Positions 1-31,962 are shown, numbered from the stretch's first letter. The stretch: 64,000 nt of DNA from Oscillospiraceae bacterium (GCA_017439425.1 JAFSJE010000008.1:1069-65068), one strand, 5' to 3'. Program-made: numbers and translations. The notes: a model not told the origin generated them from the letters alone.

Positions 1-80
1 ATGGCGATAAGCGTATTCGTGATGAGATTTATCAGGAAAATCGCGCCGATGAAAACGCGCGAGAGCTTGTGATTTTTCAC
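1..80 (-). CDS. sensor histidine kinase, N-terminal fragment (continues past window start)
   Basis: GTG at 80-78 overlaps the stop of the upstream response regulator (GTGA). The reverse translation VKNHKLSRVFIGAIFLINLITNTLIA is a hydrophobic TM-like N-terminus, and RR-then-HK order is typical. Only about 26 codons are visible. Confidence 0.35.
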   Translation of the reverse strand, partial: MKNHKLSRVFIGAIFLINLITNTLIA

Positions 81-745
81 TTCTGCACCGCCTTATAACC
101 GAGTCCGCGCACGGTAACGACGCCGATGTGCGGATTTTTTTGTATCTTCGCGCGCAGGCTCGAGATATGCACCTCGAGCGAGCGCTCCTCGCCACCGTCC
201 ATACCCCAGACGTCCTCAAGAAGCTGGTCGCGGGTGAAGATCCTGCCGATATCGGAGCAGAGCTTGTAGAGGAGGAAAAATTCCTTATTCCGCAGCTCCA
301 CCCGCTCGCCCTCCCAGCTCACCGTGAGCGTATCGCAGTCGAGGGTCGTTCCGGCGATGAAAAGGCGGCGCGACGCGACCATTCCGCTGCGCCGCAAAAG
401 TGCCCTGACGCGCCAGACCATCTCGTTTATGTCAACCGGCTTCACCATATAATCGTCGCCTCCGGCGCGAAAGCCCGAGTGCTTATCCTCCGGCGCGCCG
501 AGGGCGGTTATCATCAGCACCGGCAGGGCGTACCCCGCCTCCCTGAGCCTTCTCACAAGCTCGTTTCCGCCAACTCGCGGCATCAGAACGTCGGTTATGA
601 GCAGGTCGAAGTTCTCCCTTTCGAGCATTTCGAGCGCCTGCGCGCCGTCCGAAGCGCACGCCGCTGAGAAGCCCTCGGCGCGCAGAACGGTGCAGTACAG
701 CTCTCTGAGGTCGCGCTCATCCTCGCAGACTAAAATATTGAACAT
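77..745 (-). CDS. OmpR/PhoB-family response regulator
   Basis: 222-aa ORF. Receiver domain (MFNILVCEDE..DLLITDVLMPRVGG) plus a C-terminal winged-helix output (LEVHISSLRAKI..VRGLGYK). Confidence 0.9.
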   Translation of the reverse strand: MFNILVCEDERDLRELYCTVLRAEGFSAACASDGAQALEMLERENFDLLITDVLMPRVGGNELVRRLREAGYALPVLMITALGAPEDKHSGFRAGGDDYMVKPVDINEMVWRVRALLRRSGMVASRRLFIAGTTLDCDTLTVSWEGERVELRNKEFFLLYKLCSDIGRIFTRDQLLEDVWGMDGGEERSLEVHISSLRAKIQKNPHIGVVTVRGLGYKAVQK

Positions 746-787
746 AGAATCACCCCTCTATATATTAAAAATCTAACCTCAACTGAG

Positions 788-888: not shown

Positions 889-1560
889 ATGGCTCTACGC
901 CACGAATTGAAGCACGAGATAAGCTATGCCGATATGCTCGCGCTGAGAGGCCGTCTCGCCGCCGTGATGCGCCGCGACGAGCACGCCGCGGGCGGCGCGT
1001 ATAAAATTCGCTCGCTCTATTTTGACAACGTCTATGACAAGGCTCTTCGTGAGAAGATAGACGGCGTGAATATGCGCGAAAAGTTCCGCATCCGCTATTA
1101 TAACGGCGATATTGGTTTCATTCAGCTTGAAAAAAAGTCGAAGATCGGCTCTCTCACAAGCAAAGTCCAGGCGCGCATATCCGCCGACGAGGCGCAGAAG
1201 ATCATCTCCGGCGACCTCGATTGGATGAAATCGAGCGAAAGCGACCTCGTCCGCGAGCTTTACGCAAAAATGCGCTTCGACGGTCTGCGCCCGCGCACCA
1301 TCGTCGACTACACGCGCGAGCCGTTCATCTACGCGCCGGGAAACGTGCGCGTAACGCTCGACAGCGATATACGCACGGGGCTCGGCTCGACCGATTTTCT
1401 CTCGCCAAAGGTGCCGACAGTGGCGGCGGGCGACCAAAAGTGCATTTTAGAGGTCAAGTGGGACGAGTACCTGCCCGACGTCGTGCGCTGTGCCGTTCAG
1501 CTCGGAAGCGTTCGCGCCGAGAGCTTTTCAAAATACGCAATTTCAAGAATTTACGGATAA
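889..1560 (+). CDS. VTC-domain (polyphosphate polymerase-like, triphosphate tunnel fold) protein
   Basis: ATG at 889 follows AGGAGGG. Alternating charged beta-strand motifs (HELKHEI, YKIRSLYFDN, KFRIRYY, LEKKSK, RVTLDSDIR, ILEVKWDE) are typical of bacterial VTC-domain proteins. The upstream TTG extension from 847 was rejected. Confidence 0.75.
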   Translation: MALRHELKHEISYADMLALRGRLAAVMRRDEHAAGGAYKIRSLYFDNVYDKALREKIDGVNMREKFRIRYYNGDIGFIQLEKKSKIGSLTSKVQARISADEAQKIISGDLDWMKSSESDLVRELYAKMRFDGLRPRTIVDYTREPFIYAPGNVRVTLDSDIRTGLGSTDFLSPKVPTVAAGDQKCILEVKWDEYLPDVVRCAVQLGSVRAESFSKYAISRIYG

Positions 1561-1573
1561 AAGGAGAAAAATC

Positions 1574-2245
1574 ATGACATTTTCAGACATTTTCAAATCC
1601 TCTTTTCTCGAGAACGTGACCGCCGTCAACCCCTTCGATATGGTGCTGAGCCTCGTTCTCAGCTTCGCCATCGGGCTCTTCATCTTCTTCGTCTACCGCA
1701 AAACGTATCAGGGCGTGATGTTCTCCTCGTCCTTCGGCGTGACCCTCGTCGCGCTCACGATGATAACCGACCTCGTCATCCTCGCGGTGACTTCGAACGT
1801 AGTTCTCTCCCTCGGTATGGTCGGCGCGCTCAGCATCGTCCGCTTCCGCACCGCAATTAAGGACCCGCTCGACATCGCGTTCCTCTTCTGGTCTATCGCC
1901 GTCGGCATCGTCCTCGCGGCGGGTATGCTCCCGCTTGCGCTCTTCGGAAGTCTGCTCATCGGGCTTATCCTCATTCTCTTTGTAAACCGCAAGACCCACA
2001 CTAATCCCTACATAGTAATCCTCACCTGCGCCGATTCCGAGGCTGAAAAAAGCGCCGTCGACTGCCTCAGAAGGAGCGTTCAGAAATGCATAACGAAGTC
2101 CAAAACCGTCCGCGCCGGTTCGATAGAGCTCACGATGGAAATTCGCCTCAAAACTGACGATACCGATTTCATAAACTCCCTCTCCGCCCTCGGCGGCGTG
2201 GAGAGCGCGGTGCTCGTCAGCTACAACGGCGAGTATATGGGATAA
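1574..2245 (+). CDS. DUF4956-type integral membrane protein
   Basis: ATG at 1574 follows AAGGAG. It has 4-5 predicted TM helices, a LSIVRFRTAIKDPLD motif and a soluble tail of about 80 aa. This family commonly neighbours VTC-domain genes. Confidence 0.7.
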   Translation: MTFSDIFKSSFLENVTAVNPFDMVLSLVLSFAIGLFIFFVYRKTYQGVMFSSSFGVTLVALTMITDLVILAVTSNVVLSLGMVGALSIVRFRTAIKDPLDIAFLFWSIAVGIVLAAGMLPLALFGSLLIGLILILFVNRKTHTNPYIVILTCADSEAEKSAVDCLRRSVQKCITKSKTVRAGSIELTMEIRLKTDDTDFINSLSALGGVESAVLVSYNGEYMG

Positions 2246-2248
2246 ATT

Positions 2249-3898
2249 ATGTCAACCGAGAGATATTTCAACGCCGTAGTCGCCGCCGTAGTCGCGTTTG
2301 CGATAATCATAACGCTTCTTTTTATGAACGGTGAGGCGCTCGGGCTCAGAAAAGCCTCCTATGACGTCGGCTACCTCGACCTTTTTGACGACAGCTATGT
2401 CCACACCGTCGACATTTCTATGCCGGACTGGGACGGCTTCATCGCCCACGCGGCGAGCGAGGAGTACACGGCGGCGACAGTGACCATCGACGGCGAAGTT
2501 CTGTCAAACGTCGGCTTTCGCGCGAAGGGCAACGGCTCTCTCTTTGCCGTTACGATGATGAACTCCCCGCGATTCAGCTGGAAGATAGAGTTTGACCGCT
2601 TTGTCGACCGTCAGACGTATCACGGGCTCGACAAGCTCTGCCTCAACAACCTCGTCGAGGACGCGACCTTCATGAAGGACCACCTCGTCTACAAGTCCAT
2701 GGCGCGGCTCGGAGTTCCGGCGCCGCTCTGCTCCTACGTTTTCCTCACCGTAAACGGCGAGGCTTTCGGGCTCTACGAGGCGGTGGAGGGCATCGAGGAC
2801 GGATTTATCACCCGCAATTTCGGGCGCGGCGAGGGCAGGCTCTACAAGCCCGACAACGCGAGCATCACGGATTTCGGCATGGGCGCGGATATGAACATCT
2901 TTGCCCTCATCGGCTGGGCGCTCGACAACATCGACTTCTCCCAGCTCGACCTCAGTCAGTACGAGGGCATGAGCATGGAGGACTTCACCGGCGGCAATAT
3001 GAGTTTCGATATGACCGAGATGTACGGCGACGGCAGCTCGTTTGTAAACGGCGACAGCATGGGCGGCGCCGGACTTGGGATGATGTTCGTAAGCTCTGAC
3101 GATCTGCTTCTGAAGTACATCGACGACGAGCCGTCAAGCTATCCCAACATTTTCGGCAAGGCAAAGACAGACGTAAGCTACAAGGATAAAGCGCGGCTCA
3201 TCGGCGCGCTGGAAAGCCTCTCAGAGCGCGAAAACCTCGAAAGCACCCTTGACACGGACGAGATCATGCGCTATTTTGCAGTACACAACTTCTTTGTGAA
3301 CTCCGACTCCTACACCGGCATGAGCACCCATAACTACTATCTCTACGAGCGCGGCGGCGTTCTCAGTATGCTCCCGTGGGACTATAACCTCGGCTACGGC
3401 ACCATGCTGATGACCGCACACTACGCCGTAAACGACCCCATCGACGAGCCGATGGCAGTAAAGGGCGACGGCAATCACCCGATGTTCGAGTGGATAACCG
3501 CCGACGAGGGCTATAAGGCGCGGTATTACGGGTATCTGTCCGAGGTGCTCGATACCGATTTTGACGCTGAGATAGACGAAATCTCCGCGCTCATACGCCC
3601 GTATATCGAGCGCGACCCGACCAAATTTGTCACATTGGAGGAGTTCGACGCGGGTACCGCGATGCTCAAGCAGTATCTTTCCCGCAGGTCAGAATCCGTG
3701 CGCGGTCAGCTCTCGGGCAAGATTCCCGCGACGAAGGCGGGGCAGGCGGAAAACCCTGAGCTTTTAATCAGTGCAGAGGGCATCGACCCGCACGCTCTCG
3801 GCGACGCGACGATGGGATTTGCCGACGAGCGGCAGGATTTGAGCGCGCTGATGGGAAATTTTGACCTTTCCGCGCTCGAGGGGTTGTTCAGGAGGTGA
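2249..3898 (+). CDS. CotH-family atypical kinase, N-terminally membrane-anchored
   Basis: 549-aa ORF starting 3 nt after the DUF4956 stop. One N-terminal TM helix (VVAAVVAFAIIITLLF). CotH-like motifs are FRAKGNGS, KLCLNN, LYKPDN and HNYYLYERGG..LPWDYN. Confidence 0.8.
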   Translation: MSTERYFNAVVAAVVAFAIIITLLFMNGEALGLRKASYDVGYLDLFDDSYVHTVDISMPDWDGFIAHAASEEYTAATVTIDGEVLSNVGFRAKGNGSLFAVTMMNSPRFSWKIEFDRFVDRQTYHGLDKLCLNNLVEDATFMKDHLVYKSMARLGVPAPLCSYVFLTVNGEAFGLYEAVEGIEDGFITRNFGRGEGRLYKPDNASITDFGMGADMNIFALIGWALDNIDFSQLDLSQYEGMSMEDFTGGNMSFDMTEMYGDGSSFVNGDSMGGAGLGMMFVSSDDLLLKYIDDEPSSYPNIFGKAKTDVSYKDKARLIGALESLSERENLESTLDTDEIMRYFAVHNFFVNSDSYTGMSTHNYYLYERGGVLSMLPWDYNLGYGTMLMTAHYAVNDPIDEPMAVKGDGNHPMFEWITADEGYKARYYGYLSEVLDTDFDAEIDEISALIRPYIERDPTKFVTLEEFDAGTAMLKQYLSRRSESVRGQLSGKIPATKAGQAENPELLISAEGIDPHALGDATMGFADERQDLSALMGNFDLSALEGLFRR

Positions 3899-3925: not shown

Positions 3926-3976
3926 GAAATCCAAGCCGTTTTTCTCGCCGCAAGCGGCAACCGAAAAACATGGCGC

Positions 3977-4040
3977 TTTATGACCATTCCTTTTATGGCC
4001 ATTTTGTGCCTTTAACATTTGTGAAAGGAATGGTCATAAA
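3977..4040 (+). promoter_or_regulatory. 17-bp perfect inverted repeat (30-nt loop) ending 1 nt before the start codon of the next gene
   Basis: TTTATGACCATTCCTTT (3977-3993) is the exact reverse complement of AAAGGAATGGTCATAAA (4024-4040). The right arm contains the only purine-rich RBS candidate (AAAGGA) for the ATG at 4042. Confidence 0.6.
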
Positions 4041-4041
4041 A

Positions 4042-5046
4042 ATGAAATTCAAAAAGTTGACAGCATTCGCGCTCGCGCTGATATTCCTATTTTCATTCGC
4101 GCTCTCGGTAAAGGCTGAGGGCGCGGTGAAGGCGGGGGATATCCTCTGCTTCGGCCCTCCTGACGAGGCGAGCGGCTTTGACGGCAGGTGGATAGTTCTC
4201 GACCCCGAGCACACAAGCACCGGCGAGGCGGGAATGTTCCTCGTTTCGCTCGGCCTTGTCGGAGATGAAAACGGCGAGCCTCTCATTTTCCGCGAGATAG
4301 GCGATGTTTCCGTTTCGTTTTCCGGCAGAGGCGAGGAGTACGCCGCCGCACACCCGGGAGTAACGGACTACCGCGGAAGCGATATAGAGCGTTGGTGCGC
4401 ACAGTTTCCCGAAAAATATCTCTCCGATGCCGAGCGCGCGGCGCTCCTGCCCACATATAAATCAGACGAAGCGATAGTGATACCCGGCTTTTCCATACCC
4501 CTTCCCGGCGCGGCGAACGGCACAGTCGATTTTGACCCCGCCGAAAACGTGCTCGACGGCGACACGGTGTTCCTTCTGTCCGTTGAGGAGGCGACTGGCT
4601 ATGTCTTTACGGATAACCGCTCCCGCGTTGCGCTCTTTAAGGGCGAGCCGGGCGGGTGGTGGCTGCGCTCGCCGCATATACCGACCTTCCCGCTCGATGT
4701 GGGCTTTGTGTTCTCGTTCGGTGCCGTTATGGACTACCCGGTAAACGCAAAAAGCATGTACGAAATGACGACCTACGCCCGCCCTGCGTGCAATATAGAC
4801 GCCTCTCAGATAACCTCCCTTGAAAAATTAAGCGAAGAGGGCGGCGTAACGGTCTGGCGCGCCTCCTTCGGCGGCGAAGAGAATACAAGCGTTTACGATA
4901 CCGCCCTTCCCGTTGTGGGCGAGGTAATGGATCTCGGCAAGATGCTGCGAACCGCGATAGTAATTACAGTTATCGTCCTTGCCGCCATAGCCGCGCTTAT
5001 CGTTTTCTTTATTGTAAGAGCCGTCAGGAAAAAGGCACAGCGATGA
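4042..5046 (+). CDS. DUF6273-like secreted protein with signal peptide and C-terminal TM anchor
   Basis: MKFKKLTAFALALIFLFSFALSVKAEG is a signal peptide. GRWIVLD and GGWWLRSP motifs are present, and the C-terminal helix IVITVIVLAAIAALIVFFIV is followed by RAVRKK. Confidence 0.6.
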   Translation: MKFKKLTAFALALIFLFSFALSVKAEGAVKAGDILCFGPPDEASGFDGRWIVLDPEHTSTGEAGMFLVSLGLVGDENGEPLIFREIGDVSVSFSGRGEEYAAAHPGVTDYRGSDIERWCAQFPEKYLSDAERAALLPTYKSDEAIVIPGFSIPLPGAANGTVDFDPAENVLDGDTVFLLSVEEATGYVFTDNRSRVALFKGEPGGWWLRSPHIPTFPLDVGFVFSFGAVMDYPVNAKSMYEMTTYARPACNIDASQITSLEKLSEEGGVTVWRASFGGEENTSVYDTALPVVGEVMDLGKMLRTAIVITVIVLAAIAALIVFFIVRAVRKKAQR

Positions 5047-5120: not shown

Positions 5121-6785
5121 ATGGCAAATAAAACCTTTTTCAATAAAAAAACTGAAATTCCCGCCGCCTCCGCAGCTGCCCTCGGCGACTGTCTCGCGTT
5201 TATAGAGGGCGCGCTCGGCGAGCTCGGCACAGACCGCAAGCTCATACTGCGCTCGGTTCTGACAGCGGAGGAGCTAATACCCCAGTTTATTGAGAGCGCC
5301 GACGAGGGCGCCTCTCTCCGGCTTCAGGTCAAAAAGCTTCTCGGTGACGTCAGCATAAGCATATCCGTGCGCGGCAGAGAGCTCGACCTTCTCGAGAGCT
5401 ACGGCGGCGACCTCGCGCACGCGGGCGACTCCGAGGCTCAGCAGGTGATCCGCTCCATTCTCCTCAAGGCGCAGTCCGACCGCCTCAAGGTCACGCACAG
5501 GCGCGGCGTGAACCACGCCCGCATCCTTGTCGGGCAGGCGCAGAAGTCGATGGCCGCGTGGACTGTCGGCGCCCTTATCTGCGGAATACTCCTCGGGCTC
5601 GCGATGAAATTTCTGCTTCCGGCATCGTTCTCACTCGGCGTTTCGACGTATCTTCTGAACCCGGTCAAGACGATGTTCATGAACGCTCTCAAGATAGTCA
5701 TCGCGCCGGTGGTGTTCTTCTCGATAGTCTCCTGCATAGCGCAGTTCAAGGACCTTGCGGAGCTCGGCAGGATCGCCGCGAAGGTGATGGGCATCTATCT
5801 TCTGACGACCGTAATCGCAGTCGCGCTCTCACTCGGCACCTTCGCTCTTCTGCACCCGGGCGACTTCGGCTTCGCCCTTTCGCAGGGCATAACCGAGGCG
5901 GTCGACGTCGATATGAGCACCGACACATCACTTCTTTCGACGCTTGTTAACATCGTTCCCTCGAATTTTCTCCGTCCGTTTCTTGAATCCGACACCCTGC
6001 AGATCATCTTCCTCGGCGTTCTCTGCGGCGTCGCCATCGGGATGGTCGGAAAATACGCGCCGCTCCTTCAGGATTTCTTCGAGGCGTGCAACTCGCTGTT
6101 TCTCACGATAACGACCATAATCTCCCGCGTTATCCCGCTCGCGGTGTTCGCCTCCACGGCGATAATGGTAAACGATCTCGGCGGCGGCTCGCTTCTCGGC
6201 GTTCTCGGCCTCTTCGGAACGTATCTTGTAACGATCGTCAGTATGCTCGCGATCTACGGCTTGCTCATTCTCGTTTTCGGCAGGCTCAACCCGCTCACCT
6301 TCTTCAAAAAGAACCGCGAGGGAATGCTCACGAGCCTCACGCTCTCCTCATCCTCCGCCTCCATGCCGACAAATATGCGCGTCTGCACCGACAGACTCGG
6401 CGTTTCGCCGAAGGTGTGCAGCTTCTCGATACCGCTCGGCGCGACCGTAAATATGGACGGCACCTGCATTCTGCTTACGCTTTCGGGGCTTTTCCTCGCG
6501 CGGGCATACGGCGTCGCGGTACCGGTGAGCGCGATGACCTCTCTCGCCATCACGATAATTCTTCTCTCACTCGGCTGTCCGGGAGTTCCCGGCGCCGCCT
6601 TTGTGTGCATCGCCGTCGTGCTTGAAAACCTGCACGTTCCCATCGAGGCGATGGGGCTTCTCATGGGCATCTACCCGATAATAGATATGATCGGCACGAT
6701 GTCGAACACAACGGGCGACGTTGCCTGCACGACGATCGTCGCAAAAAGCGAAAACCTCCTCGATATGCAGGTCTACAATTCGTAA
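5121..6785 (+). CDS. dicarboxylate/amino acid:cation symporter (DAACS family) with extra N-terminal domain of about 150 aa
   Basis: The C-terminal ~400 aa have the typical DAACS layout (ALKIVIAPVVFFSIV, SSSASMPT, GATVNMDGT, MIGTMSNTTGD). The N-terminal ~150 aa are soluble and not part of the carrier fold. Confidence 0.85.
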   Translation: MANKTFFNKKTEIPAASAAALGDCLAFIEGALGELGTDRKLILRSVLTAEELIPQFIESADEGASLRLQVKKLLGDVSISISVRGRELDLLESYGGDLAHAGDSEAQQVIRSILLKAQSDRLKVTHRRGVNHARILVGQAQKSMAAWTVGALICGILLGLAMKFLLPASFSLGVSTYLLNPVKTMFMNALKIVIAPVVFFSIVSCIAQFKDLAELGRIAAKVMGIYLLTTVIAVALSLGTFALLHPGDFGFALSQGITEAVDVDMSTDTSLLSTLVNIVPSNFLRPFLESDTLQIIFLGVLCGVAIGMVGKYAPLLQDFFEACNSLFLTITTIISRVIPLAVFASTAIMVNDLGGGSLLGVLGLFGTYLVTIVSMLAIYGLLILVFGRLNPLTFFKKNREGMLTSLTLSSSSASMPTNMRVCTDRLGVSPKVCSFSIPLGATVNMDGTCILLTLSGLFLARAYGVAVPVSAMTSLAITIILLSLGCPGVPGAAFVCIAVVLENLHVPIEAMGLLMGIYPIIDMIGTMSNTTGDVACTTIVAKSENLLDMQVYNS

Positions 6786-7959: not shown

Positions 7960-8901
7960 TTATGCGCGGTTAAATTTCTCCTTTGGCTGCTTGCACCGCG
8001 GGCAGCGCCAGTCGTCCGGAAGCGCCTCAAACGCCGTGCCGTCGTGCTCCGCGGGATCGTAGACGTAGCCGCAGATCGAACAAACGTAAACTCCCGTCGC
8101 CTCAACGGCGGCAAAATCGACCTCGGCAAGCACTGTCGGAACGGGAGAGTCAAGATCCATAACTCTCTTTGCCTCAAGATTTTCATAGCCCTGCGGCGTG
8201 TGCGTTCCGCAGTAGACCGTCGGGTGCGAGCGCACAAACTCGCGCACTCTGTCGAGCGTTTCGCGCGCGGCCGCCTTGTCCTCGAAAACCACTGAGAGCT
8301 TGTTTTCATAGAGCGCCTCGTCGACGTAGGTGATGTCGCCGTGGAGCATATAGAAAAGCCCTCCGTCCTCGGCTATAACGATGCTGTTGCCGAGAGTGTG
8401 ACCCTTCGCCTTGATGAAATAAACTCCCTCGCAGATTTTCTCGCTCTCCGGGAAATTGTAATACGCGCCGGAGGTGAACTTCACCGGCGTGATGTTCTGA
8501 AGTCCTGCCAGCTCCGCGGCGCCGGTCTCGTCGGCGTTGACGAAAATCTCCGCGTTCGGGAAGCTTTTAAGCTCGCCGGAGTGGTCGGAATGCTTATGCG
8601 TGAGAAGTATCTTCGTCACCTTGTCCGGCGTGTAGCCGAGGGAGGCGAGCGCCTCAAGGTAGCTTTCGATGTCCTTGCCGGTGTAGGCAAGGCTATTTTC
8701 GTCGGGCTTCTCCTCCGGCGTTCCGGCGGGCAGACCGGTATCGACGAGGATAACGTCCGAGCCGGTGTCGATGAGGTAATTCTGGAGCGAGCCGCGGTAG
8801 CGCACGCTCTTGTCGAACTTCTCCATGCCCTCCTCACCGCCGAAGGCGAAGGGCTGGGTGTAGAATCCGTCTTTTCTGAATTTTACTGCCTTGATTATCA
8901 T
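7960..8901 (-). CDS. MBL-fold metallo-hydrolase fused to a C-terminal rubredoxin domain
   Basis: Starts at MIIKAVKF (ATG at 8901, GGAGG upstream). It has the HxHxDH motif ([10 protein letters not shown]). The C-terminus [17 protein letters not shown] has the two CxxC knuckles of rubredoxin. Confidence 0.8.
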
Positions 8902-8930
8902 ATTATTACCTCCGTTTTTTATTTTTGTCC

Positions 8931-9569
8931 TCATTTTATGGTTTTCCTCAGAAAATCGAGCGCCCGGCCGATAACGAGGAACGCCGCGAGCATTACAACG
9001 ACCGCGTAGAAAACGCCGATACCCAGCGTTTTTAAATCCGCCGACTCCGGCATAAAGCCGAACCACCCTGCCGGCGCGATGTAGTTGAGGAACGGATACG
9101 GCGCCGCCATGCCGTTCCACCGGAAGCCGCAGAGCGAGAGCGCCATAATGAGCGCAAAATAACAAATCGGCGGTGCAATTGCGAGCGCGGGCGAATAGCT
9201 TTCGCCCGAATCGTTCAGAAGGAAGTCCGCAAGCACGCTGACGGGCGTTATGAAATGCAGGCATAGGCTCGCGCAGTTATCCTGCGCGTAGGAGGCGATA
9301 AGGCCGCGCGGGTCCATCGGCGCGAGGACGAGGAGAAAGACGAGCATCGTAGCCGCTATCGACACCGCGGCGGAGAATTTCGCCCTTTCTGCCGCCCGCG
9401 AGGCGGGTTTTACTATCTGCCACAGCGCCACGAACGCGGCAAAGATGTTCGACAGCTGGGTGAAGTAGGTAAACCCCACCGGCCAGTGGAGCATCGCTAT
9501 TATCGCATACGCCGTCGAGGCGAGGGCGATAAGCTTTGGTATGAGAAAGCCCGGCTTTCGCGCTCTCAT
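8931..9569 (-). CDS. integral membrane protein (Pr6Pr/FAR-17a-like, tentative)
   Basis: 212 aa with about 6 hydrophobic segments. The start overlaps the cstA stop (ATGA). The family name is from memory only. Confidence 0.45.
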
Positions 9570-10972
9570 TTACTCTTTCTCAGCTGGAAAACGTAGAACG
9601 CAAAGAGCGCCGCCGCGAAAATAATGCCCGCGGGGTAGCCGATCGCGGCGCTGAGTCCGAAGCCCTCGCCCGCCATAATTATGTAGGTCACGCTGACCGC
9701 GCTCATAAAGCTCGCGGGAAGGGCAGTCAGCAGGCTTGTAAGCTTATTTGCGTTGGTTTTCAGCAGATACGCCGTAGCGACCCACAGCGCGATCATGGCA
9801 AGGGTCTGATTTGACCAGGAGAAATAGCGCCAGAGGACGTTGAAATCGAGCTGGGTGAGCACAGCGCCCGCCGCAAGGAGCGGAAGCGTGATGAGCAGGC
9901 GGTTGCGGATGCTCTTCTGATCGAGCTTAGTGATCTCGGCAAGTATCAGCCTTGCCGAGCGGAACGCCGTATCGCCCGAGGTGATCGGGCAGGCGATAAC
10001 GCCGACGATGGCGAGCACGCCGCCCACGGGGCCGAGCATTCCGGTGGAGATATCGTACACCGCGCCGGACTGGCCGAGAGTCGAGAGCGCGTTATTGAGG
10101 CCGCCGGTCGCGCCGTAGAATGCTACTCCGCCCGCCGCCCACACAAGGGCGATGACGGACTCGGAGAGCATAGCGCCGTAGAAAACCTTTCGGCCGAGCT
10201 TTTCGGAGGTTATGCACTTTGCCACCATCGGCGACTGGGTAGCGTGAAAGCCTGAGATCGCGCCGCAGGCGACGGTCACGAACATAAACGGCCATATGGG
10301 AAGCCCCTCCGGGTGCAGGTTTTCGAGCGTTATCTCGGGAATAGTGTAGCCGCCGGCGACGATGCCGCCGAGAATGCCCGCCGCCATGATGATAAGCACC
10401 GCGCCGAACACGGGATAGAGCTTGCCGATGATCTTATCTATCGGCAGAAGCGTTGCGAGAACGTAGTAAATGAGAATGACCACGATCCAGAACGTGACGT
10501 TCAGCGTATCCGGCGTGAGCCGCGCAAGAAGCGCCGCCGGTGAGTTTACGAAAACCGTTCCGGTCAGCACGAGCAGAACGATCGAGAACACGCGCATGAT
10601 CCACTTTGCCGCGCTTCCGAGGTAGATACCGCTCAGCTCCGCGATGGAGGCGCCGTCGTGGCGCTCGGAGATCATGCCGCACATATAATCGTGTACTCCG
10701 CCGCCGAGCACAGAGCCGAAGATTATCCACAGAAACACCACCGGCCCGAAGCACGCGCCCATGAGCGCGCCGAAGATCGGCCCCGTTCCGGCGATGTTCA
10801 GAAGCTGGACGAGAAACGCCTTCCAGGTCGGCATCGGCATGAAGTCTACCCCGTCAGCGCGCGTATATGCGGGAGTTTTGCGGTCGTCCGGCGCGAAAAC
10901 GCCCTCGACGAGCCTGCCATAGATAAAGTATCCCGCGACTAAAACCAAAAATGAAAGAATCAGTGAAACCAT
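9566..10972 (-). CDS. cstA: carbon starvation protein A family transporter
   Basis: 468-aa polytopic membrane protein. The N-terminus (LNIAGTGPIFGALMG..GGVHDY) is characteristic of CstA. Confidence 0.85.
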   Translation of the reverse strand: MVSLILSFLVLVAGYFIYGRLVEGVFAPDDRKTPAYTRADGVDFMPMPTWKAFLVQLLNIAGTGPIFGALMGACFGPVVFLWIIFGSVLGGGVHDYMCGMISERHDGASIAELSGIYLGSAAKWIMRVFSIVLLVLTGTVFVNSPAALLARLTPDTLNVTFWIVVILIYYVLATLLPIDKIIGKLYPVFGAVLIIMAAGILGGIVAGGYTIPEITLENLHPEGLPIWPFMFVTVACGAISGFHATQSPMVAKCITSEKLGRKVFYGAMLSESVIALVWAAGGVAFYGATGGLNNALSTLGQSGAVYDISTGMLGPVGGVLAIVGVIACPITSGDTAFRSARLILAEITKLDQKSIRNRLLITLPLLAAGAVLTQLDFNVLWRYFSWSNQTLAMIALWVATAYLLKTNANKLTSLLTALPASFMSAVSVTYIIMAGEGFGLSAAIGYPAGIIFAAALFAFYVFQLRKSK

Positions 10973-19678: not shown

Positions 19679-22573
19679 TTACTTGGAGGCCTTGAGATAC
19701 TTCTTTACAAGCAGGAACTCCCAGAGGGCGCAGAGGCAGAGGACAACAACCGTGCAGGCGATCCTGATGATCTCCCAGGTTGCAAGTCCGCCTGCGGCGC
19801 CGACGCCGTAGGCGCGGGAATTGGCGGTGGTGTAAAGGATGTTCTTGGAGGCCTGACGCATAGCGAGAACGGAGGTGGCGCTGGTCTTATCGGTCATCTC
19901 GCTGTACTCGGTCATCTGCGGGGTAAGGCAGAAGTCGTTGCCGTTGCGGACGAGGATATCAGCGTCCTGATAGCCGTAGCCGCCGAAGTAGTCGGTAAGC
20001 ACCATGCCGCGGAAGCCCCACTCGCCGCGGAGGACGGAGTTCTGGAGCTCGGTGGTGGCGGCGGCGTACTTGTTGCCGATATAGTTGAAGGCGCTCATGA
20101 CTGCGGTGCAGTGGCCTTCCTTAACGGAGAGCTCGAACGGTCTGAGGTAGATCTCGCGCATCGCCTGCTCATTGGTCCAGGTGCAGAGCATATCGGTACG
20201 GTGAGTCTCCTGATCGTTGAGGGCGAAGTGCTTCATGAAGGCGTAGACTCCGCTCTCTGCGGCGCCGAGGATGGCGTTGGCGGCCATCTTGCCGGAGATG
20301 AAGCCGTCCTCGGAGTAATACTCGAAGTTGCGGCCCGCGAAAGCGCTTCTGTGGATGTTCATAGCCGGAGCATACCAGCCGGAGACGTCCATCTCGTCAG
20401 CCATCTTTCCGATGGACTGGCCGAACGCCTTGGCGAGGTCGACGTTCCAGGTCGCGGCGATAACTACGCCCGCGGGGAAGCCGATGGACGCCTTGCCGGT
20501 GAAGTTGTTGTTGATGGAGGCAGGGCCGTCGCAGTCGACCTGCTGGGTCTTGCCGACGGAGTCGATAGCTACGCTCTGATAGCCGCCGACGCCGATAAGC
20601 TGTACCATATCCTCAACGGTAAGCTGGTCGAGGAGCTTCTCCCACTGAGCGTCGTCATAGCTCTTGCCCTTCATATCGGCAAGGGTGAGGCCGTTCTTCG
20701 CGCCGGTGGTGGGCATAACGTCGGAGGCGTTATTAAACTGAGTCGGGTCGTAGTTCGTGTGGTTATAGAAGCCCGCCTTCGCCTCGTCGCTCATCTCAAA
20801 GTTGGTCGGAGCGGCGGTAGCCTCGGCGTAGTTTGCAAAGCCGTCAGCGCGGCTGAGGTAGGTAACGTCGCCTGCGGCATAGCCGAAGAGGCTGGTCGCA
20901 GCCTCGGCGTCGCTGGAGCGCTTATTAGACTCGTTATAAGTAATAGTGGTGGGAACATTGTAGGTCTTGGAGTCGATGACGTTGTGGGAATCCTTGTTGA
21001 TGGAGATGACGTAGTCGCCCGCCTCGAGAACGTAGCAGCCGGCTCCCTTGTAATCGAAGGACGCCATATCCTCAGCCTTGAAGCTGATCTTTACGGTCTC
21101 GGAAGCGCCGGGCTGGAGAACGCCGGTCTTGGCGAAGGCTACGAGGTTTGCAACGCTCTTCTCGATGCCGCCGTTGGTGTAGGGCGGGTTGAAGTAGACC
21201 TCGACAACGTCCTTGCCGGCGACGGAGCCGGTGTTCGTGACCTTGACGTCGAAGCTGAGAGTGCCGTTGGACTCAGAAATAGCGCCCATCTCCTGAGTGA
21301 AGGTGGTGTAGCTGAGGCCGTAGCCGAACGGGAACACGACAGCCTTGTCGTAGTCGATGACGCCCTCGGCTGCTGCGGTCTCATACCAGCGGTAGCCGAC
21401 GTAGATGCCCTCGACGTAGTTGACGAAGTTCGGAGTTACGGGGAAGCCGTAGCTCATGGGGCTGACGTCCGCGAGGTTCGTGTACTGGAACTCGCCGATG
21501 TTGTTGAAGTTGGGCGCCGCGGTGAGATCGGCAACGAAGGTGTCGATGGTGCGGCCGGAGGGGTTGACCTTACCGGTGATGATGCTGCCGAGAGCATTGA
21601 AGCCGGTCTGGCCGGGCCCGGGAGCGAGAATTGCGGCCTTGATGCTCGGGTACTCGTTGAGCCAGCCGAGCTCCATAGCGTTGGAGGCGTTGATGACGAC
21701 GATGACGTTACTGAACTCGCTTGTGACCTTCTCGATCATGGCAAGCTCGCGGGTCGTGGGCTCAAGATAGCTCTTATTCGCGTCAAGATCCTCGGGATAC
21801 TCGCTGTAACGAAGACCGGTCTGGCTGAACATTGTGCCGTTGCCGTCGTCGTTGAAGGTGTCGGGAACGTTGGGGTCGAGGCTCGTCGGAAGGTCAGCGC
21901 CCTCGCCGCCGGAGCGGGAGATAACGATGAGCGCGGTGTCGGAGTAAGCCTTCGCGCCGTCGAAGATGCCCTTTGCCTCGTACTCAGCCATGCTGGGCTC
22001 GGGAACAGTCCAGTCCTGACCCATCATTCCGATGCCGGGGCGGGCTGCGCGGAAGTCCTGATAGAACTTCACGAGGTCTGCGTTGTACTGGATGCCGGCG
22101 TTCTCAAGTCCCTTAAGGAGGGAAACGGTCTCATAGAGGCCGGAGAGCGAGCCGGAGCCGGTGCCGCCGTAGACGGGGTTAGTGGAGGACCAGCCGAAGG
22201 TGTTGAGCTTCACTTCGCCGGAGAGCGGAAGAAGTCCGTCGTTCTTGAGAAGAACAAAGCCCTCCTCGCTGATCTCCTCGCACAGCTCGCTGGCGTTGGT
22301 GATGCTTTCCTCGCTGATGTCGCCGCTTCCGCGGAGCGCCATGCTGACGATTCCGTAGAGCGGGCCTGTGAGAACAAGATTAAGTACGATTACGAGGGCT
22401 ACAACGAATGCAACCCACGCCGAGCCGCGGACAAGACCCTTAAGGGGCTTCTTGATTTTGATCGCGGCGATGGTGACGATGATCGCCAGCGCGAGAACGA
22501 TACCGAGAGCGATAAGATGACCCTGGATAAGTCCGAGCGTAGTGATTACGTCGTTCATGTTGATGCCGAGCAT
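19679..22573 (-). CDS. glycoside hydrolase family 3 (beta-glucosidase/xylosidase-like) with N- and C-terminal membrane anchors
   Basis: Starts at MLGINMND (ATG at 22573, GGAGGA 8 nt upstream). GH3 features include GFRGMVLTDY, the SAFNYIGNKY region and an FnIII-like domain. There are two N-terminal TM helices and one C-terminal TM helix followed by KKYLKASK. Confidence 0.85.
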   Translation of the reverse strand: MLGINMNDVITTLGLIQGHLIALGIVLALAIIVTIAAIKIKKPLKGLVRGSAWVAFVVALVIVLNLVLTGPLYGIVSMALRGSGDISEESITNASELCEEISEEGFVLLKNDGLLPLSGEVKLNTFGWSSTNPVYGGTGSGSLSGLYETVSLLKGLENAGIQYNADLVKFYQDFRAARPGIGMMGQDWTVPEPSMAEYEAKGIFDGAKAYSDTALIVISRSGGEGADLPTSLDPNVPDTFNDDGNGTMFSQTGLRYSEYPEDLDANKSYLEPTTRELAMIEKVTSEFSNVIVVINASNAMELGWLNEYPSIKAAILAPGPGQTGFNALGSIITGKVNPSGRTIDTFVADLTAAPNFNNIGEFQYTNLADVSPMSYGFPVTPNFVNYVEGIYVGYRWYETAAAEGVIDYDKAVVFPFGYGLSYTTFTQEMGAISESNGTLSFDVKVTNTGSVAGKDVVEVYFNPPYTNGGIEKSVANLVAFAKTGVLQPGASETVKISFKAEDMASFDYKGAGCYVLEAGDYVISINKDSHNVIDSKTYNVPTTITYNESNKRSSDAEAATSLFGYAAGDVTYLSRADGFANYAEATAAPTNFEMSDEAKAGFYNHTNYDPTQFNNASDVMPTTGAKNGLTLADMKGKSYDDAQWEKLLDQLTVEDMVQLIGVGGYQSVAIDSVGKTQQVDCDGPASINNNFTGKASIGFPAGVVIAATWNVDLAKAFGQSIGKMADEMDVSGWYAPAMNIHRSAFAGRNFEYYSEDGFISGKMAANAILGAAESGVYAFMKHFALNDQETHRTDMLCTWTNEQAMREIYLRPFELSVKEGHCTAVMSAFNYIGNKYAAATTELQNSVLRGEWGFRGMVLTDYFGGYGYQDADILVRNGNDFCLTPQMTEYSEMTDKTSATSVLAMRQASKNILYTTANSRAYGVGAAGGLATWEIIRIACTVVVLCLCALWEFLLVKKYLKASK

Positions 22574-22599
22574 ACTGATTTTTCCTCCTCTTTTCATTT

Positions 22600-22616
22600 T
22601 GCACAATCGATGTGCA
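22600..22616. promoter_or_regulatory. inverted repeat TGCACA-N5-TGTGCA in the GH3 leader (candidate operator)
   Basis: TGCACAATCGATGTGCA lies just downstream of the predicted -10. It shares the TTTGCACAA core with sites at 25295-25306 and 30324-30332. Confidence 0.4.
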
Positions 22617-22624
22617 GTAGTCAC

Positions 22625-24087: not shown

Positions 24088-25149
24088 TTAGCCCTCTATT
24101 TCAAGAAAATCTCCCGTTGACTCGCGGGGAACTATGTCGGTCGAGGTGTACATCGTCCGGAAGTCGAGCGACGGCTCCTGAATGCGCGTTATGAGCATCT
24201 GCGCGGCGGAATACGCCATTATCTGCGTGTGGATATGCACCGTCGTGAGCGCGGGAACGAGCATCTTCGACTCCGGCGCGTCGTCAAAGCCGCAGAGCAT
24301 AACGTCCTCCGGCACGCTCTTGCCGAGCTTGCGGAGAATCTGAAGCGAATCGTAGGCGACAAAGTCGTTAGCGCAGATAAAGAGCTCCGGCAGCTCATCG
24401 AGCGCCTCCAGCTCGTGGTAGAGGTCGACAACGTTGATGCTCTTTATTATAAACCGCTCCTCCACCGGCGCGGAGGCGAGCATCATTGCCGTTCTGAACG
24501 CGATATAGCGCTCGAAGAAGCTCTGGCAGTGGTCGTAATCGCCGATAAAGCCGATTTTCCGGATGCCCCTTCTGAGCGCGGTCTCGACAACGCGGATTAT
24601 CTCCGTAGTGTTGTCCATAAAGAGCTGATCGGCGGGCAGGGCGCGGCCGCCGGTGCGCACCGGCCCGTCCACAAAGAGTATCGGCAGGCCGAGCTCGCAG
24701 AGCATTTTATCGTAATCCCAGTCGAACATCTCTATGCAGACGATGGCGCTCGCCTGCTCGGGCAGGAAGGTGAACGGCAGAACGCCGTTTTTGATGTCCT
24801 CCTTGCTGACGTGGTGCGTATTGAGCCGGTAGCCGAGCTGACTGAGCTCGCGCTGGAGCCGGTCGAGCATCGTCGCGGCGAAGTGACTCCCGCCGAAGTA
24901 GAAGGTAGTGAGCAGCGCGATCTCGCCGAGCTCAGGCTTCTCCTCGCCGCCCTCGCCCTCGGCGTTCACCGCCTTGTAGAGCGTCTGAACGTAGCTAAAC
25001 TGCTTGTAGCCCATCTCGACCGCCTTTTGCAGTATCTTTTCGCGGGTGACCTCTGCAAGACCCTCGGAGTTGTTGATCGCCTTCGACACCGTGTTGCGCG
25101 AAACGCCGAGCGCGTCCGCTATGTCCTGTATCGTTACCTTTTTGCTCAT
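24088..25149 (-). CDS. LacI-family transcriptional regulator
   Basis: Starts at MSKKVTIQDIADALGVSRNTVSKAINN (HTH; ATG at 25149), followed by a periplasmic-binding-protein-like sugar-binding core. The 115-codon upstream extension was rejected. Confidence 0.9.
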   Translation of the reverse strand: MSKKVTIQDIADALGVSRNTVSKAINNSEGLAEVTREKILQKAVEMGYKQFSYVQTLYKAVNAEGEGGEEKPELGEIALLTTFYFGGSHFAATMLDRLQRELSQLGYRLNTHHVSKEDIKNGVLPFTFLPEQASAIVCIEMFDWDYDKMLCELGLPILFVDGPVRTGGRALPADQLFMDNTTEIIRVVETALRRGIRKIGFIGDYDHCQSFFERYIAFRTAMMLASAPVEERFIIKSINVVDLYHELEALDELPELFICANDFVAYDSLQILRKLGKSVPEDVMLCGFDDAPESKMLVPALTTVHIHTQIMAYSAAQMLITRIQEPSLDFRTMYTSTDIVPRESTGDFLEIEG

Positions 25150-25183
25150 GAATACACGCCCTTTGCGGTGATTATTACCTATT

Positions 25184-25212
25184 ATAATAATACCTGAGTT
25201 TACAAATGTCAA
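25184..25212 (-). promoter_or_regulatory. sigma-70-type promoter for the LacI-family gene
   Basis: On the minus strand: TTGACA (25212-25207), 17-nt spacer, TATTAT (25189-25184). Confidence 0.5.
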
Positions 25213-25290
25213 CGAAATACGCATTGAATGCAACTCAAACGAGCAGAGTACACATTTTTGGGCATTTCTATTTGTGCATAACGATAAAAT

Positions 25291-25307
25291 TGTTGCATTT
25301 GCACAAA
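25291..25307. promoter_or_regulatory. candidate operator (imperfect palindrome TGTTGCA-TT-TGCACAA)
   Basis: Lies just upstream of the -35 of the ABC-operon promoter. The core GCATTTGCACA is identical to the site at 25369-25379. Confidence 0.45.
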
Positions 25308-25314
25308 TATTCCG

Positions 25315-25343
25315 TTGACTTTTACATTTTGTAATGCTAATAT
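25315..25343 (+). promoter_or_regulatory. sigma-70-type promoter for the ABC transporter operon
   Basis: TTGACT (25315-25320), 17-nt spacer, TAATAT (25338-25343). Confidence 0.65.
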
Positions 25344-25365
25344 GACCTTGCGTCAGGGCAGAAAT

Positions 25366-25379
25366 TGTGCATTTGCACA
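25366..25379. promoter_or_regulatory. candidate LacI-type operator, perfect 14-bp palindrome TGTGCA-TT-TGCACA
   Basis: The two 6-bp arms are exact reverse complements. It lies about 20-35 nt downstream of the -10, a typical repressor position. Confidence 0.5.
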
Positions 25380-25438
25380 TTTGGCGGTGCGTGTTTGCGC
25401 GATTTTTGCCTAACCCGTAACGAAAAAGGAGGAGTTCG

Positions 25439-26380
25439 ATGAAAAAATCCTTACCGCCAAACGCCTCAGGAGGTAAGAGCTCCGCGCTGCACAACTTCGG
25501 AGTCTATGTGCGGCAGCACTGGCAGCTGTATGTGATCTTCATGCTGCCCGCGTTCGCGCTGACTATCATCTTCCGTTACATCCCGATGGGCGGAATCTTG
25601 ATGGCCTTCACGGAGTACAATCCTATCCGAGGCATTCTGGGAAGTGAATGGGTCGGCTTTGAGCACTTCCAGCGCTTCCTTTCCTCACCCGACTTCATGA
25701 CCTATCTCATGAACACCCTCAAGCTTAGTATCTTCGGCCTTCTGTGGGGCTTCCCGGCGCCTATTCTTCTGGCGTTCCTGCTCAACAGAATCATGTCGAA
25801 GAAGACGAAGCAGCGCATCCAGCTTGTGCTTTATATGCCGAACTTCATTTCGGTCATAGTTCTCTGCGGTATCGTCCGTATTCTTCTCTCGCCCACCGGA
25901 ATGCTCAATTCCCTTCTGGGCACGAACACGAACTTTATGACGATGCCCTCCGCCTTCCGCACGATCTACATCGCATCCGGAATCTGGCAGGGAGCCGGCT
26001 GGGCGTCCATCATCTACACCGCCGCCCTCTCCAACGCCTCCAAGGAGCTGACTGAGGCCGCCGTTATCGACGGCGCCAACATCTTCCAGCAGATCAAGGC
26101 AGTTGAATGGCCCGCCATCAAGGATACCGTCCTCATCCAGTTCATCATGAGCGTCGGTAACATCATGAGCGTCGGCTTTGAGAAGGCATACGCGCTCCAG
26201 ACCGACATGAACCTCGCAACGAGCGAAATCATTTCCACCTACGTCTACAAAAAGGGTCTTCTTGAAGGCGACTATGGCTTCTCCACCGCCGTCGGACTCT
26301 TCAACACCGTCATCAACGTCGTTCTTCTTATCTCGATGAACCAGATCGTCAAGAAGATGAACGAGGGCAAGGGAATCTGA
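25439..26380 (+). CDS. carbohydrate ABC transporter permease (LplB/YtcP-like)
   Basis: 313 aa, GGAGG RBS, six TM segments, and an EAA-type loop (ELTEAAVIDGAN). Confidence 0.85.
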   Translation: MKKSLPPNASGGKSSALHNFGVYVRQHWQLYVIFMLPAFALTIIFRYIPMGGILMAFTEYNPIRGILGSEWVGFEHFQRFLSSPDFMTYLMNTLKLSIFGLLWGFPAPILLAFLLNRIMSKKTKQRIQLVLYMPNFISVIVLCGIVRILLSPTGMLNSLLGTNTNFMTMPSAFRTIYIASGIWQGAGWASIIYTAALSNASKELTEAAVIDGANIFQQIKAVEWPAIKDTVLIQFIMSVGNIMSVGFEKAYALQTDMNLATSEIISTYVYKKGLLEGDYGFSTAVGLFNTVINVVLLISMNQIVKKMNEGKGI

Positions 26381-26396
26381 GGGGAGGAGAGAAGCT

Positions 26397-27305
26397 ATGA
26401 CAAAAAGAAAGAAAAAGAGCGAGTTTCAGAAGCTCCCCACCGGCGACAAGGCTCTGCTTATAGTCGGCTACATAATCCTCGGCCTGTTCGTTGTTGCGAT
26501 CATCATGCCGATGGTCTACATCATTCTCGCCTCCTTCATCGACCCCATCACGCTTCAGAACAGCGGTCTCACCTTCGACTTCAGCAAGTGGACCACTACC
26601 GCCTACGAGCGTGTTCTTGAGAACGCACAGATCTGGGTCGGCTTCAAAAACGCCCTTATCTACTCCGTTCTCTTCACAGTCCTCTCCGTCATCGTGACCC
26701 TGCTCGCCGCCTATCCTATGAGCCGCGCGGACTTCAAGGGCAAGGGCTTCTTCAACACAATCTTCGTTATCACGATGTTCTTCGGCGGCGGACTTATCCC
26801 CACCTATCTTCTTATCTCCAACCTCCACATGCTCGACACCATCTGGGCGATCCTTCTCCCCGGATGCTTCAGCGTATGGAACATGATCATCGCCCGCACC
26901 TACTACCTCGGCATCCCGCGCGACCTTCAGGAAGCCGCCGAGATCGACGGTGCGACCGAGATGACCTACTTCTTCCAGATCCTTGTTCCGGTCTGCACCC
27001 CGATCATCGCCACCATCTCGATGTGGCAGTTCGTCGGAATGTGGAACAGCTACTTCGACGCCATGATCTACCTCAATGACGCCGCGAAGCAGCCCCTCCA
27101 GCTCGTTCTCCGCTCAATACTCATTCAGAACCAGCCGGATCCCGGCATGGTAAGCGATATGCAGAGCACCGCCCAGAGAGCACAGATGGCGGAGCTTCTC
27201 AAATACGCGACCATCATCATCTCCAGCCTTCCGCTGCTTATCATGTATCCGTTCTTCCAGAAGTACTTTGATAACGGAATCATGGCAGGCGCCGTCAAGG
27301 GCTGA
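26397..27305 (+). CDS. carbohydrate ABC transporter permease (LplC-like)
   Basis: 302 aa with the EAA loop DLQEAAEIDGATEM. Confidence 0.85.
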   Translation: MTKRKKKSEFQKLPTGDKALLIVGYIILGLFVVAIIMPMVYIILASFIDPITLQNSGLTFDFSKWTTTAYERVLENAQIWVGFKNALIYSVLFTVLSVIVTLLAAYPMSRADFKGKGFFNTIFVITMFFGGGLIPTYLLISNLHMLDTIWAILLPGCFSVWNMIIARTYYLGIPRDLQEAAEIDGATEMTYFFQILVPVCTPIIATISMWQFVGMWNSYFDAMIYLNDAAKQPLQLVLRSILIQNQPDPGMVSDMQSTAQRAQMAELLKYATIIISSLPLLIMYPFFQKYFDNGIMAGAVKG

Positions 27306-27325
27306 TCTATAAAAAAGGAGAAATC

Positions 27326-29023: not shown

Positions 29024-29053
29024 GCTTAAACCTTTTTGGAAGGAGTTACTTAA

Positions 29054-30235: not shown

Positions 30236-30258
30236 TTCCGTATCTCTTCCTTTTCAAA

Positions 30259-30291
30259 CCCCCTGCACAGACGCCATACCTGTGCAGGGGG
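30259..30291 (+). terminator. 12-bp perfect stem-loop after the ABC ATPase gene (no clear U-tract)
   Basis: CCCCCTGCACAG/CTGTGCAGGGGG with a 9-nt loop. The downstream sequence is not T-rich. Confidence 0.45.
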
Positions 30292-31955: not shown

Positions 31956-31962
31956 ATTACCT

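Follow-up and report, generated by a model that had tools for sequence, protein, structure and literature searches.

A VTC–DUF4956–CotH gene cassette of an Oscillospiraceae bacterium as a candidate route to polyphosphate at the cell surface

Organization of the cassette

In a stretch of 64,000 nucleotides from an Oscillospiraceae bacterium (GCA_017439425.1, JAFSJE010000008.1:1069-65068; the whole stretch is hereafter called the window), three genes are packed on one strand and encode, in this order, a VTC-domain protein, a DUF4956 membrane protein and a CotH-family protein (Table 1). They are separated by gaps of 13 nt (VTC/DUF4956) and 3 nt (DUF4956/CotH), exactly as described in the initial annotation of this DNA, and an AGGAGG motif is found 7 nt 5′ of the VTC start codon. 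As a route by which polyphosphate may reach the bacterial surface, this three-gene set, referred to here as the cassette, is a strong candidate. The trio has already been noticed in print, and the window harbors a stand-alone, regulator-linked variant of it.

The three family calls of the initial annotation were checked with profile hidden Markov models (HMMs), and all scored above the Pfam gathering cut-offs: VTC (PF09359) reached 122 bits against 23 (E 3.5e-35, residues 4-219 of 223), DUF4956 (PF16316) 44.6 bits against 30.6 (E 1.7e-11) and CotH (PF08757) 185.5 bits against 23.8 (E 2.4e-54). The identities of the three proteins can be considered practically certain.

A putative polyphosphate polymerase

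The first protein consists of the VTC domain alone, with neither an SPX nor a transmembrane (TM) domain, so that it is expected to be soluble, as had been proposed, and the four motifs previously singled out (YKIRSLYFD, KFRIRYY, LEKKSK and ILEVKWDE) are all present in it. A single-sequence search against solved structures gave no match, and a profile built from close relatives gave only an E value of 0.008 with no usable alignment; with a profile of distant relatives (A3), the yeast Vtc4 catalytic domain was the top match (E 2e-10). The AlphaFold2 (AF2) model of the protein (pLDDT 81) forms a tunnel-shaped β-barrel, whose best Foldseek match was Vtc4 (3g3r/3g3q, E 2e-10, TMq 0.68). The top 13 matches were all tunnel domains of the VTC complex (Vtc4, Vtc2, Vtc3), with other triphosphate-tunnel enzymes at a TMq of ~0.45-0.5.

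The profile alignment paired R4 with Vtc4 R196, K8 with K200, R67 with R264, R69 with R266, K83 with K281, Y141 with Y359, R143 with R361, R154 with R373, E188 with E426, S214 with S457 and K215 with K458, and all of these residues except R4 belong to the tunnel set of the bacterial protein. A cryo-EM study of VTC reported that K200, R264, R266, K281, R361, K458, S457 and Y359 coordinate triphosphate, each mutation lowering polyphosphate, and that Mn2+ is chelated by E426; of these residues, only K458 differs in the inactive Vtc3/Vtc2 (Leu/Ile). The Vtc4-type set needed for polyphosphate synthesis is fully kept in the window's protein, the K458 equivalent included, and its residues are invariant or nearly invariant down to relatives at 36-40% identity. 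K215 itself lies in an FSKY motif that aligns with FSKF of Vtc4 and is invariant in close relatives and nearly so in distant ones. The designation of the protein as a putative polyphosphate polymerase is a strong inference from the active site, and the enzyme probably does make polyphosphate, judging from its residues and modelled fold. An exhaustive search for matches to this bacterial Vtc4-type enzyme yielded 4,685 clusters (50% identity) at E<=0.001 and 2,091 at E<=1e-10.

Some VTC homologues (P0325, P0337, P0343, P0357 and P0388) bear a disordered N-terminal extension of 190-260 aa that is rich in K/R/P/Q and matches no Pfam family. Another, P0302, looked like a VTC–DUF4956 fusion, which would have spoken for physical coupling of the two proteins. 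It was rejected, since the truncation of both domains and the unrelated tail behind them point to a probable frameshift chimera.

An MgtC-like membrane partner

The initial annotation had predicted 4-5 TM helices and a soluble tail for the DUF4956 protein, which agrees with the AF2 model, in which five predicted TM helices (residues 20-138) precede an ACT-like C-terminal domain (145-216) of β-α-β-β-α-β topology. The best structural match of this domain was the C-terminal domain of Mycobacterium tuberculosis MgtC (2LQJ; Foldseek, E 6.5e-4), followed by ACT domains. At the sequence level, the MgtC matches stay below the cut-offs (PF02308, 13.8 bits against 31.4; NF007431, 31.5 against 214), and DUF4956 thus appears to be an MgtC/SapB relative by architecture rather than a member of that family.

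Conservation is higher in DUF4956 than in the enzyme, with an identity of 74-78% across Oscillospiraceae and Lachnospiraceae, compared with ~65% for VTC, and a stretch of ~40 residues over TM3-TM4 is invariant. Its conserved basic residues K43, R90, R92, K96 and K140 all lie at the predicted cytoplasmic face. In the same organism from another metagenome sample (L002:9946-10607), the gene is split into ORFs (open reading frames) of 169 and 36 aa with VTC and CotH intact, which reflects either a strain-level disruption or an assembly error.

The CotH protein

The CotH protein has one TM segment (residues 7-25) followed by an acidic remainder (85 D/E versus 40 K/R). The protein matches Bacillus cereus CotH (5JD9) at E 1e-12, and its two catalytic aspartates, D353 in an NSD motif and D378 in PWDYN, are spaced as D224 and D247 of the B. 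cereus protein, apart from a short insertion. In B. subtilis CotH, mutation of either of their equivalents, D228 or D251, inactivates the enzyme. Both aspartates are 100% conserved in 30 full-length relatives, as is the N-lobe motif R-x-K-G-N-S/T-S. An Asp/Met/Gly/Phe-rich, low-complexity insert (residues ~203-290) lies between the two Pfam-matched parts of CotH and varies in length and sequence among relatives.

Given the basic N-terminal stub and the acidic ectodomain, the third protein would be oriented N-in, C-out, and the CotH ectodomain is predicted to face outward, in line with the single N-terminal TM helix and extracytoplasmic domain proposed at the outset. A streptococcal homologue has been detected in a published secretome, which backs the outside location.

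A conserved core with an exchangeable third protein

One genome per species was scanned. At least 581 stretches across the genome collection encode a relative, and the best 80 of these, whose VTC is closest to that of the window (61-74% identity), were kept; almost all come from metagenome-assembled genomes (MAGs) of gut and rumen Clostridia. Protein searches gave Clostridia-like relatives only, and of four particularly distant VTC representatives, three lay on contigs whose shortness or truncation hid the neighbouring genes. DUF4956 directly follows VTC on the same strand in 78/79 assessable loci, and the pair is succeeded in 72/74 by a third gene for an anchored protein, with order and strand constant, an arrangement that is far above chance. 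The co-occurrence expected from the initial annotation was therefore found, but a CotH kinase is not a fixed member of the module: the third gene encodes CotH in 33 loci (33/33 match Pfam CotH) and a Cthe_2159-type β-helix protein (PF14262) in 39 (39/39 match Pfam Cthe_2159), so slightly more than half of the close relatives have the latter instead. A home-made HMM had at first labelled these third genes, about half of the total, as "divergent CotH"; the label was rejected on the Pfam result and was an artefact of the N-terminal anchor that both classes have in common.

In homologues, this anchor comprises the basic, conserved stub MSTHKxIDxIC, the TM helix and LFMNGExLG; the CotH of the window carries a divergent version (MSTERYFNAVV...). 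Over the first 32 residues, CotH and Cthe_2159 types are 53% identical to each other, compared with 52% and 58% within the types. One of the Cthe_2159 partners is a lipoprotein, which places the Cthe_2159 ectodomain outside the cell as well. Cthe_2159 itself binds cellulose and polygalacturonate and is described as a binding protein without demonstrated catalysis.

The rest of the cassette does not follow the identity of the third gene. The similarity of VTC and DUF4956 between the two third-gene classes is about the same as within them, the nearest VTC neighbour has the same third-gene class in only 54/70 cases, and the closest VTC relatives of the window carry the Cthe_2159 type. Two MAGs hold two cassettes each: RUG13498 combines a CotH-type with a Cthe_2159-type cassette (L035 and L064), and RGIG4195 carries L057 and L061. 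Since both third-gene types keep the same anchor, the core is best described as VTC plus DUF4956 with a swappable ectodomain, and the conserved unit is VTC, DUF4956 and the docking anchor. A joint membrane complex is very likely because of the near-obligate linkage, the extreme conservation of DUF4956 and the shared anchor, and there is good reason to expect that the three proteins act together at the membrane.

Genomic surroundings and regulators

Outside the cassette itself, a single type of neighbour recurs, namely an OmpR-type regulator and its kinase, which lie immediately upstream in the same or the divergent orientation; the other flanking genes are unrelated among loci. Of the 66 loci in which the upstream sequence is long enough, 13-24 have this pair, most of them with CotH-type cassettes. 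Thus, the two-component system that had been noted beside the module does recur, but only at a minority of loci. In the window, the response regulator, divergent from the cassette, the histidine-kinase fragment and the downstream DUF6273 gene are located where the initial annotation had placed them, and the response regulator is the likely regulator of the cassette. In the source contig L001, where the kinase and regulator pair occupies genes 8149-9192 and 9189-9857, the full kinase has 347 aa with HAMP, HisKA and HATPase_c domains. Among more distant cassettes (VTC 50-59% identical), some stand alone among unrelated genes and others follow response regulator–kinase pairs. At two loci (L089:5013-7980 and L091:5292-8047), the genes directly upstream encode a SigI-like sigma factor and anti-sigma-like proteins (RsgI_M/PepSY) in place of a two-component system. 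In a second architecture, a multidomain CotH (LTD, Fn3-associated) is followed by a VTC whose extension is long, basic and disordered, and then by DUF4956. At L093:3205-8106, by an mraZ cell-division cluster, the order is multidomain CotH (LTD, CHB_HEX_C/Fn3_assoc; frameshifted), VTC and DUF4956.

A pel operon was sought near the cassette of the window and none was found. Over 10 kb of upstream and 30 kb of downstream sequence, neither pel nor other polysaccharide-synthesis genes occur, and no recurrent polysaccharide neighbours were observed in the 80 related loci or in eight Pfam-annotated contexts.

Table 1. Features of the cassette and its surroundings in the window
Feature	Position (nt)	Strand	Size	Remarks
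VTC gene	889..1560	+	223 aa	ATG at 889, stop to 1560
DUF4956 gene	1574..2245	+	223 aa	
CotH gene	2249..3898	+	549 aa	
CotH conserved anchor	2249..2383	+		N-terminal stub, TM helix and LFMNGEALG motif; shared with Cthe_2159-type third genes
CotH kinase ectodomain	2384..3898	+		Pfam CotH; predicted extracytoplasmic, acidic
CotH low-complexity insert	2855-3118			
Codon of catalytic D353	3305-3307			
Codon of catalytic D378	3380-3382			
Histidine-kinase gene, 5′ end	1..80	-	~26 codons	Next gene after the response regulator
OmpR-family response regulator	77..745	-		Pfam Response_reg 2e-26, Trans_reg_C 4e-21
Sigma-70-like promoter match	738..766	+		Weak, 9/12 positions, consensus match alone; 143-nt divergent intergenic region
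DUF6273 protein gene	3970..5046	+		Pfam 7e-8; signal-like N-terminus and C-terminal TM helix
SDF transporter gene	5121-6785	+	554 aa	
GH3 glycosidase gene	19679-22624	-	981 aa	
Likely fructan-utilisation locus	24088-33525			
ORF by the fructan locus	31945-33525		526 aa	No Pfam match

No convincing terminator was found downstream of CotH. The membrane-anchored DUF6273 protein encoded there was considered as a fourth cassette member and rejected: its gene follows the cassette in only five loci, four of them from one organism, and because of this poor conservation it is probably a neighbour outside the module. The window contains no Rfam match and no tRNA, and a search for an anti-phage defence role with PADLOC matched none of four proteins.

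Some features of the surrounding genes may be recorded. The SDF (dicarboxylate-symporter-family) transporter has an N-terminal extension of ~140 aa, with the Pfam domain at residues 145-542. The GH3 glycosidase has a permuted Pfam domain order, with the C-terminal domain at residues 124-411, an Fn3-like domain at 472-546 and the N-terminal domain at 715-880. A LacI-type regulator, ABC sugar transporter genes and GH32 form the likely fructan-utilisation locus. Within 10 kb upstream of the start of the window (L001:1-7100), on the opposite strand past the two-component system, a cluster comprises a gene resembling a nonribosomal peptide synthetase (AMP-binding, PP-binding, Condensation), a carboxylesterase, two APH-type kinases, one of them with STAS domains, and a Y_phosphatase3 gene.

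Previous reports on the trio

Reports from 2019-2020 describe the set of cotH, polyphosphate polymerase and DUF4956 genes as an accessory group that adjoins Gram-positive pel operons (Whitfield 2020), the trio being contiguous with pelDEADAFG in streptococci, clostridia and bifidobacteria. In Streptococcus intermedius (SIR_1594-1592; 2024-2025, mBio 2025), deletion of DUF4956 or CotH cut aggregation in sputum medium by more than half. The authors assumed a cytoplasmic product and reported no occurrence of the trio apart from pel loci, a restriction that fails for the Clostridia examined here. The statement of the initial annotation that the trio has no assigned function holds insofar as no paper assigning one was found in the literature search, but the trio had already been published as a pel accessory with partial genetics. 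Two further reports can be mentioned. A 2026 preprint describes PPK-independent extracellular polyphosphate in the B. cereus group and treats its origin as unknown, and in Bacteroides thetaiotaomicron the DUF4956 and DUF2490 genes BT3498-BT3499 were listed as co-regulated under iron limitation; this pair could be a Gram-negative version with a different partner.

Proposed mechanism and alternative explanations

The initial annotation had proposed that a cytoplasmic tunnel enzyme is coupled to a membrane conduit that supplies or controls an outward-facing kinase. This idea is partly supported and remains plausible, but should be recast as a VTC–DUF4956 core with interchangeable outward partners. 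The Vtc4-type active site and the predicted outward CotH agree with it, but CotH is not an obligate third gene, and therefore "supplying a kinase" cannot be the general role of the core; any kinase hypothesis must also accommodate the non-kinase Cthe_2159 variant. As for the conduit, DUF4956 is MgtC-like and shares no relationship with the VTC channel, and conduction of any kind is not known for a relative of MgtC, so that this element is pure inference.

The favoured, though still tentative, explanation of the whole is that the locus encodes a three-protein envelope machine. In a first step, suggested by the active site and fold, the soluble VTC protein would use ATP to polymerise polyphosphate on the inner face of the membrane. 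In a second, suggested by the near-obligate adjacency and by the extreme conservation of the membrane protein, VTC would be docked on the MgtC-like DUF4956, whose ACT-like domain and cytoplasmic basic ring (K43, R90, R92, K96 and K140) are the likely contact or regulatory sites. In a third, to which the conserved anchor common to two unrelated ectodomains points, the single-pass partner would be held on the core by its N-terminal stub and TM helix with the ectodomain displayed outside, in the window an apparently catalytically intact CotH. The fourth step is speculative: polymer or phosphoryl groups might reach the outer face, where the ectodomain would use or hold them, CotH moving phosphate onto surface or matrix targets at a site where ATP is presumably unavailable, and the alternative Cthe_2159 β-helix binding polyanion. 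Expression would be set by the adjacent envelope-sensing regulator, OmpR/histidine kinase here and SigI/RsgI-like pairs elsewhere. The pel operons next to the published trio and the chitin-synthase-like glycosyltransferase of Clostridium perfringens are counted as context for such an envelope machine. Pel is a cationic aminosugar polymer, for which an exported polyanion would be a natural partner.

The separate elements of this scheme are not equally secure. Passage of the polymer across the membrane via DUF4956 is possible but doubtful, and use of polyphosphate as a donor by CotH is unlikely. Also unlikely is the boldest version, namely a third bacterial polyphosphate route, independent of PPK1/PPK2, in many gut and rumen Firmicutes, in which the polymer would be extruded via DUF4956 and passed to a docked ecto-protein, CotH using polyphosphate instead of ATP outside the cell.

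Several observations weigh against the envelope machine. The literature search found no biochemical test of any bacterial VTC-domain enzyme. For DUF4956, the confidence of the AF2 model is moderate (pLDDT 68, pTM 0.46), its profile matched no solved structure, leaving the TM part without a solved relative, and the Vtc1-type TM channel (DUF202) gave no match to it even at E<=10. Additionally, no conserved basic residue of DUF4956 lies within the bilayer, and the literature presents MgtC, its nearest characterised relative, not as a channel but as a regulator acting on ATP synthase and PhoR. Because of the strongly acidic character of the CotH ectodomain, binding of polyphosphate to it would require metal bridging. 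The swap to a non-kinase ectodomain indicates that feeding a kinase is not the general purpose of the core. Finally, in S. intermedius the DUF4956 and CotH deletions moved Pel levels in opposite directions and the VTC deletion had no reported effect on aggregation or Pel, a poor fit to a simple linear pathway.

The main rival, itself unlikely, is an outside-in control of cytoplasmic polyphosphate, in which DUF4956 would be a scaffold or regulator, its ACT-like domain would sense a metabolite, and the ectodomain would be a sensor tuning the polymerase through TM–TM contacts. Such a role would suit the description of MgtC relatives as regulators rather than channels and the fact that ACT-like folds are typical of ligand sensors; the attachment of two unrelated ectodomains to one anchor is reminiscent of exchangeable sensor modules, Cthe_2159 acts as a binding protein, and a cytoplasmic product was also presumed by the S. 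intermedius authors. However, the catalytic aspartates and kinase core of CotH are strictly conserved, which is unexpected for a mere binding module, the cassette is usually under a separate envelope-sensing regulator, and a cytoplasmic polymerase has no evident need of so invariant a 5-TM partner.

Less likely than outside-in control is that the cassette is an exopolysaccharide or matrix accessory, a rather improbable reading in which a Pel-like or chitin-like polymer made elsewhere in the genome, or its assembly proteins, would be phosphorylated, or the polymer would be cross-linked by the polyanion, and the stand-alone position of the cassette would be the result of genomic drift alone. The contiguity of the trio with pelDEADAFG, its position next to the glycosyltransferase in NELoc-2 of C. 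perfringens, the altered Pel level and aggregation after DUF4956 or CotH deletion in S. intermedius, and the binding of polysaccharides by Cthe_2159 all speak for this accessory role. In the Clostridia studied here, however, the cassette behaves as an autonomous unit, with polysaccharide-synthesis genes neither in the flanks of the window's copy nor recurrent among the 80 loci. Also less likely than outside-in control, and very improbable, is a tunnel enzyme that hydrolyses or cyclises triphosphate like most bacterial CYTH/TTM proteins and has no polyphosphate role: ygiF, CYTH triphosphatases and adenylate cyclases do match the VTC fold (E 1e-8 to 1e-5), and the acidic E6 and E10 flank K8 on the N-terminal strand, reminiscent of the CYTH ExExK motif, but Vtc4 is the best match in both sequence and fold by a clear margin and its whole triphosphate-binding set is kept, including the K458 that marks the active polymerase.

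Bacterial polyphosphate is usually ascribed to PPK1/PPK2 and regarded as an intracellular polymer. The cassette, which combines an intact VTC active site with a membrane protein and a partner predicted to face outward, is abundant among Clostridia of the gut and rumen; if the envelope machine does deliver polyphosphate to the surface, it would represent a new biosynthetic route and a candidate phosphoryl donor for extracytoplasmic kinases, as well as a possible source of the PPK-independent extracellular polyphosphate. It could also provide a handle on the biofilm matrix and host interaction, given that in a pathogen the trio is already seen to influence aggregation that depends on Pel. The use of one anchor for exchangeable ectodomains offers a concrete design rule.

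Comparison with known systems

The cassette resembles the eukaryotic VTC complex (yeast Vtc4/Vtc3/Vtc1; PDB 3G3Q, 7YTJ, 8I6V) in its catalytic tunnel domain, in the triphosphate-binding residues, K458 among them, and in the tie between the enzyme and a membrane partner. The yeast complex couples synthesis to translocation out of the cytosol, which for the bacterial cassette is a proposal. However, the bacterial enzyme is a free protein of 223 aa that has no SPX domain and is not fused to TM helices, it is paired with a 5-TM MgtC-like protein instead of the 3-TM Vtc1/DUF202 channel, and the outward-facing third protein has no counterpart in the eukaryotic complex. MgtC of Salmonella and M. tuberculosis (2LQJ) shares with DUF4956 a multi-helix TM domain followed by an ACT-like cytoplasmic domain, and its published link to phosphate/ATP homeostasis fits, but the sequence similarity is sub-threshold, MgtC is not paired with VTC, and its described partners are the F1Fo ATP synthase and PhoR.

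Bacillus CotH (5JD9) belongs to the same fold family and has both catalytic aspartates. That protein acts in the mother cell with ATP on CotB and CotG, whereas the CotH of the window is predicted to be outside the cell and membrane-anchored, has an acidic insert of ~90 aa and lies in no spore-coat gene context. The Cthe_2159 family (PF14262) takes the third position on the same anchor in 39/72 related cassettes; it is non-kinase and absent from the window.

The Gram-positive pel accessory trio has the same three families contiguous, with a CotH predicted to be secreted or at the surface. It differs in the gene order (CotH-VTC-DUF4956 versus VTC-DUF4956-CotH in the window) and in its pel operon, which the window's cassette lacks; moreover, the CotH of the window has the conserved N-terminal anchor and no FN3 tail, and its cassette adjoins an OmpR/histidine kinase pair. 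In NELoc-2 of C. perfringens (CP4_0458-0468), VTC genes are each followed by a membrane protein annotated as "tubulin/FtsZ", taken here as DUF4956 by size and position alone, with CotH after. Unlike the cassette of the window, this pathogenicity-associated locus has the VTC/membrane-protein pair duplicated around a resolvase and is linked to a chitin-synthase-like glycosyltransferase, and it resembles L089 and L091 in carrying a SigI-like factor ("sigma factor SgiI") upstream of a VTC gene.

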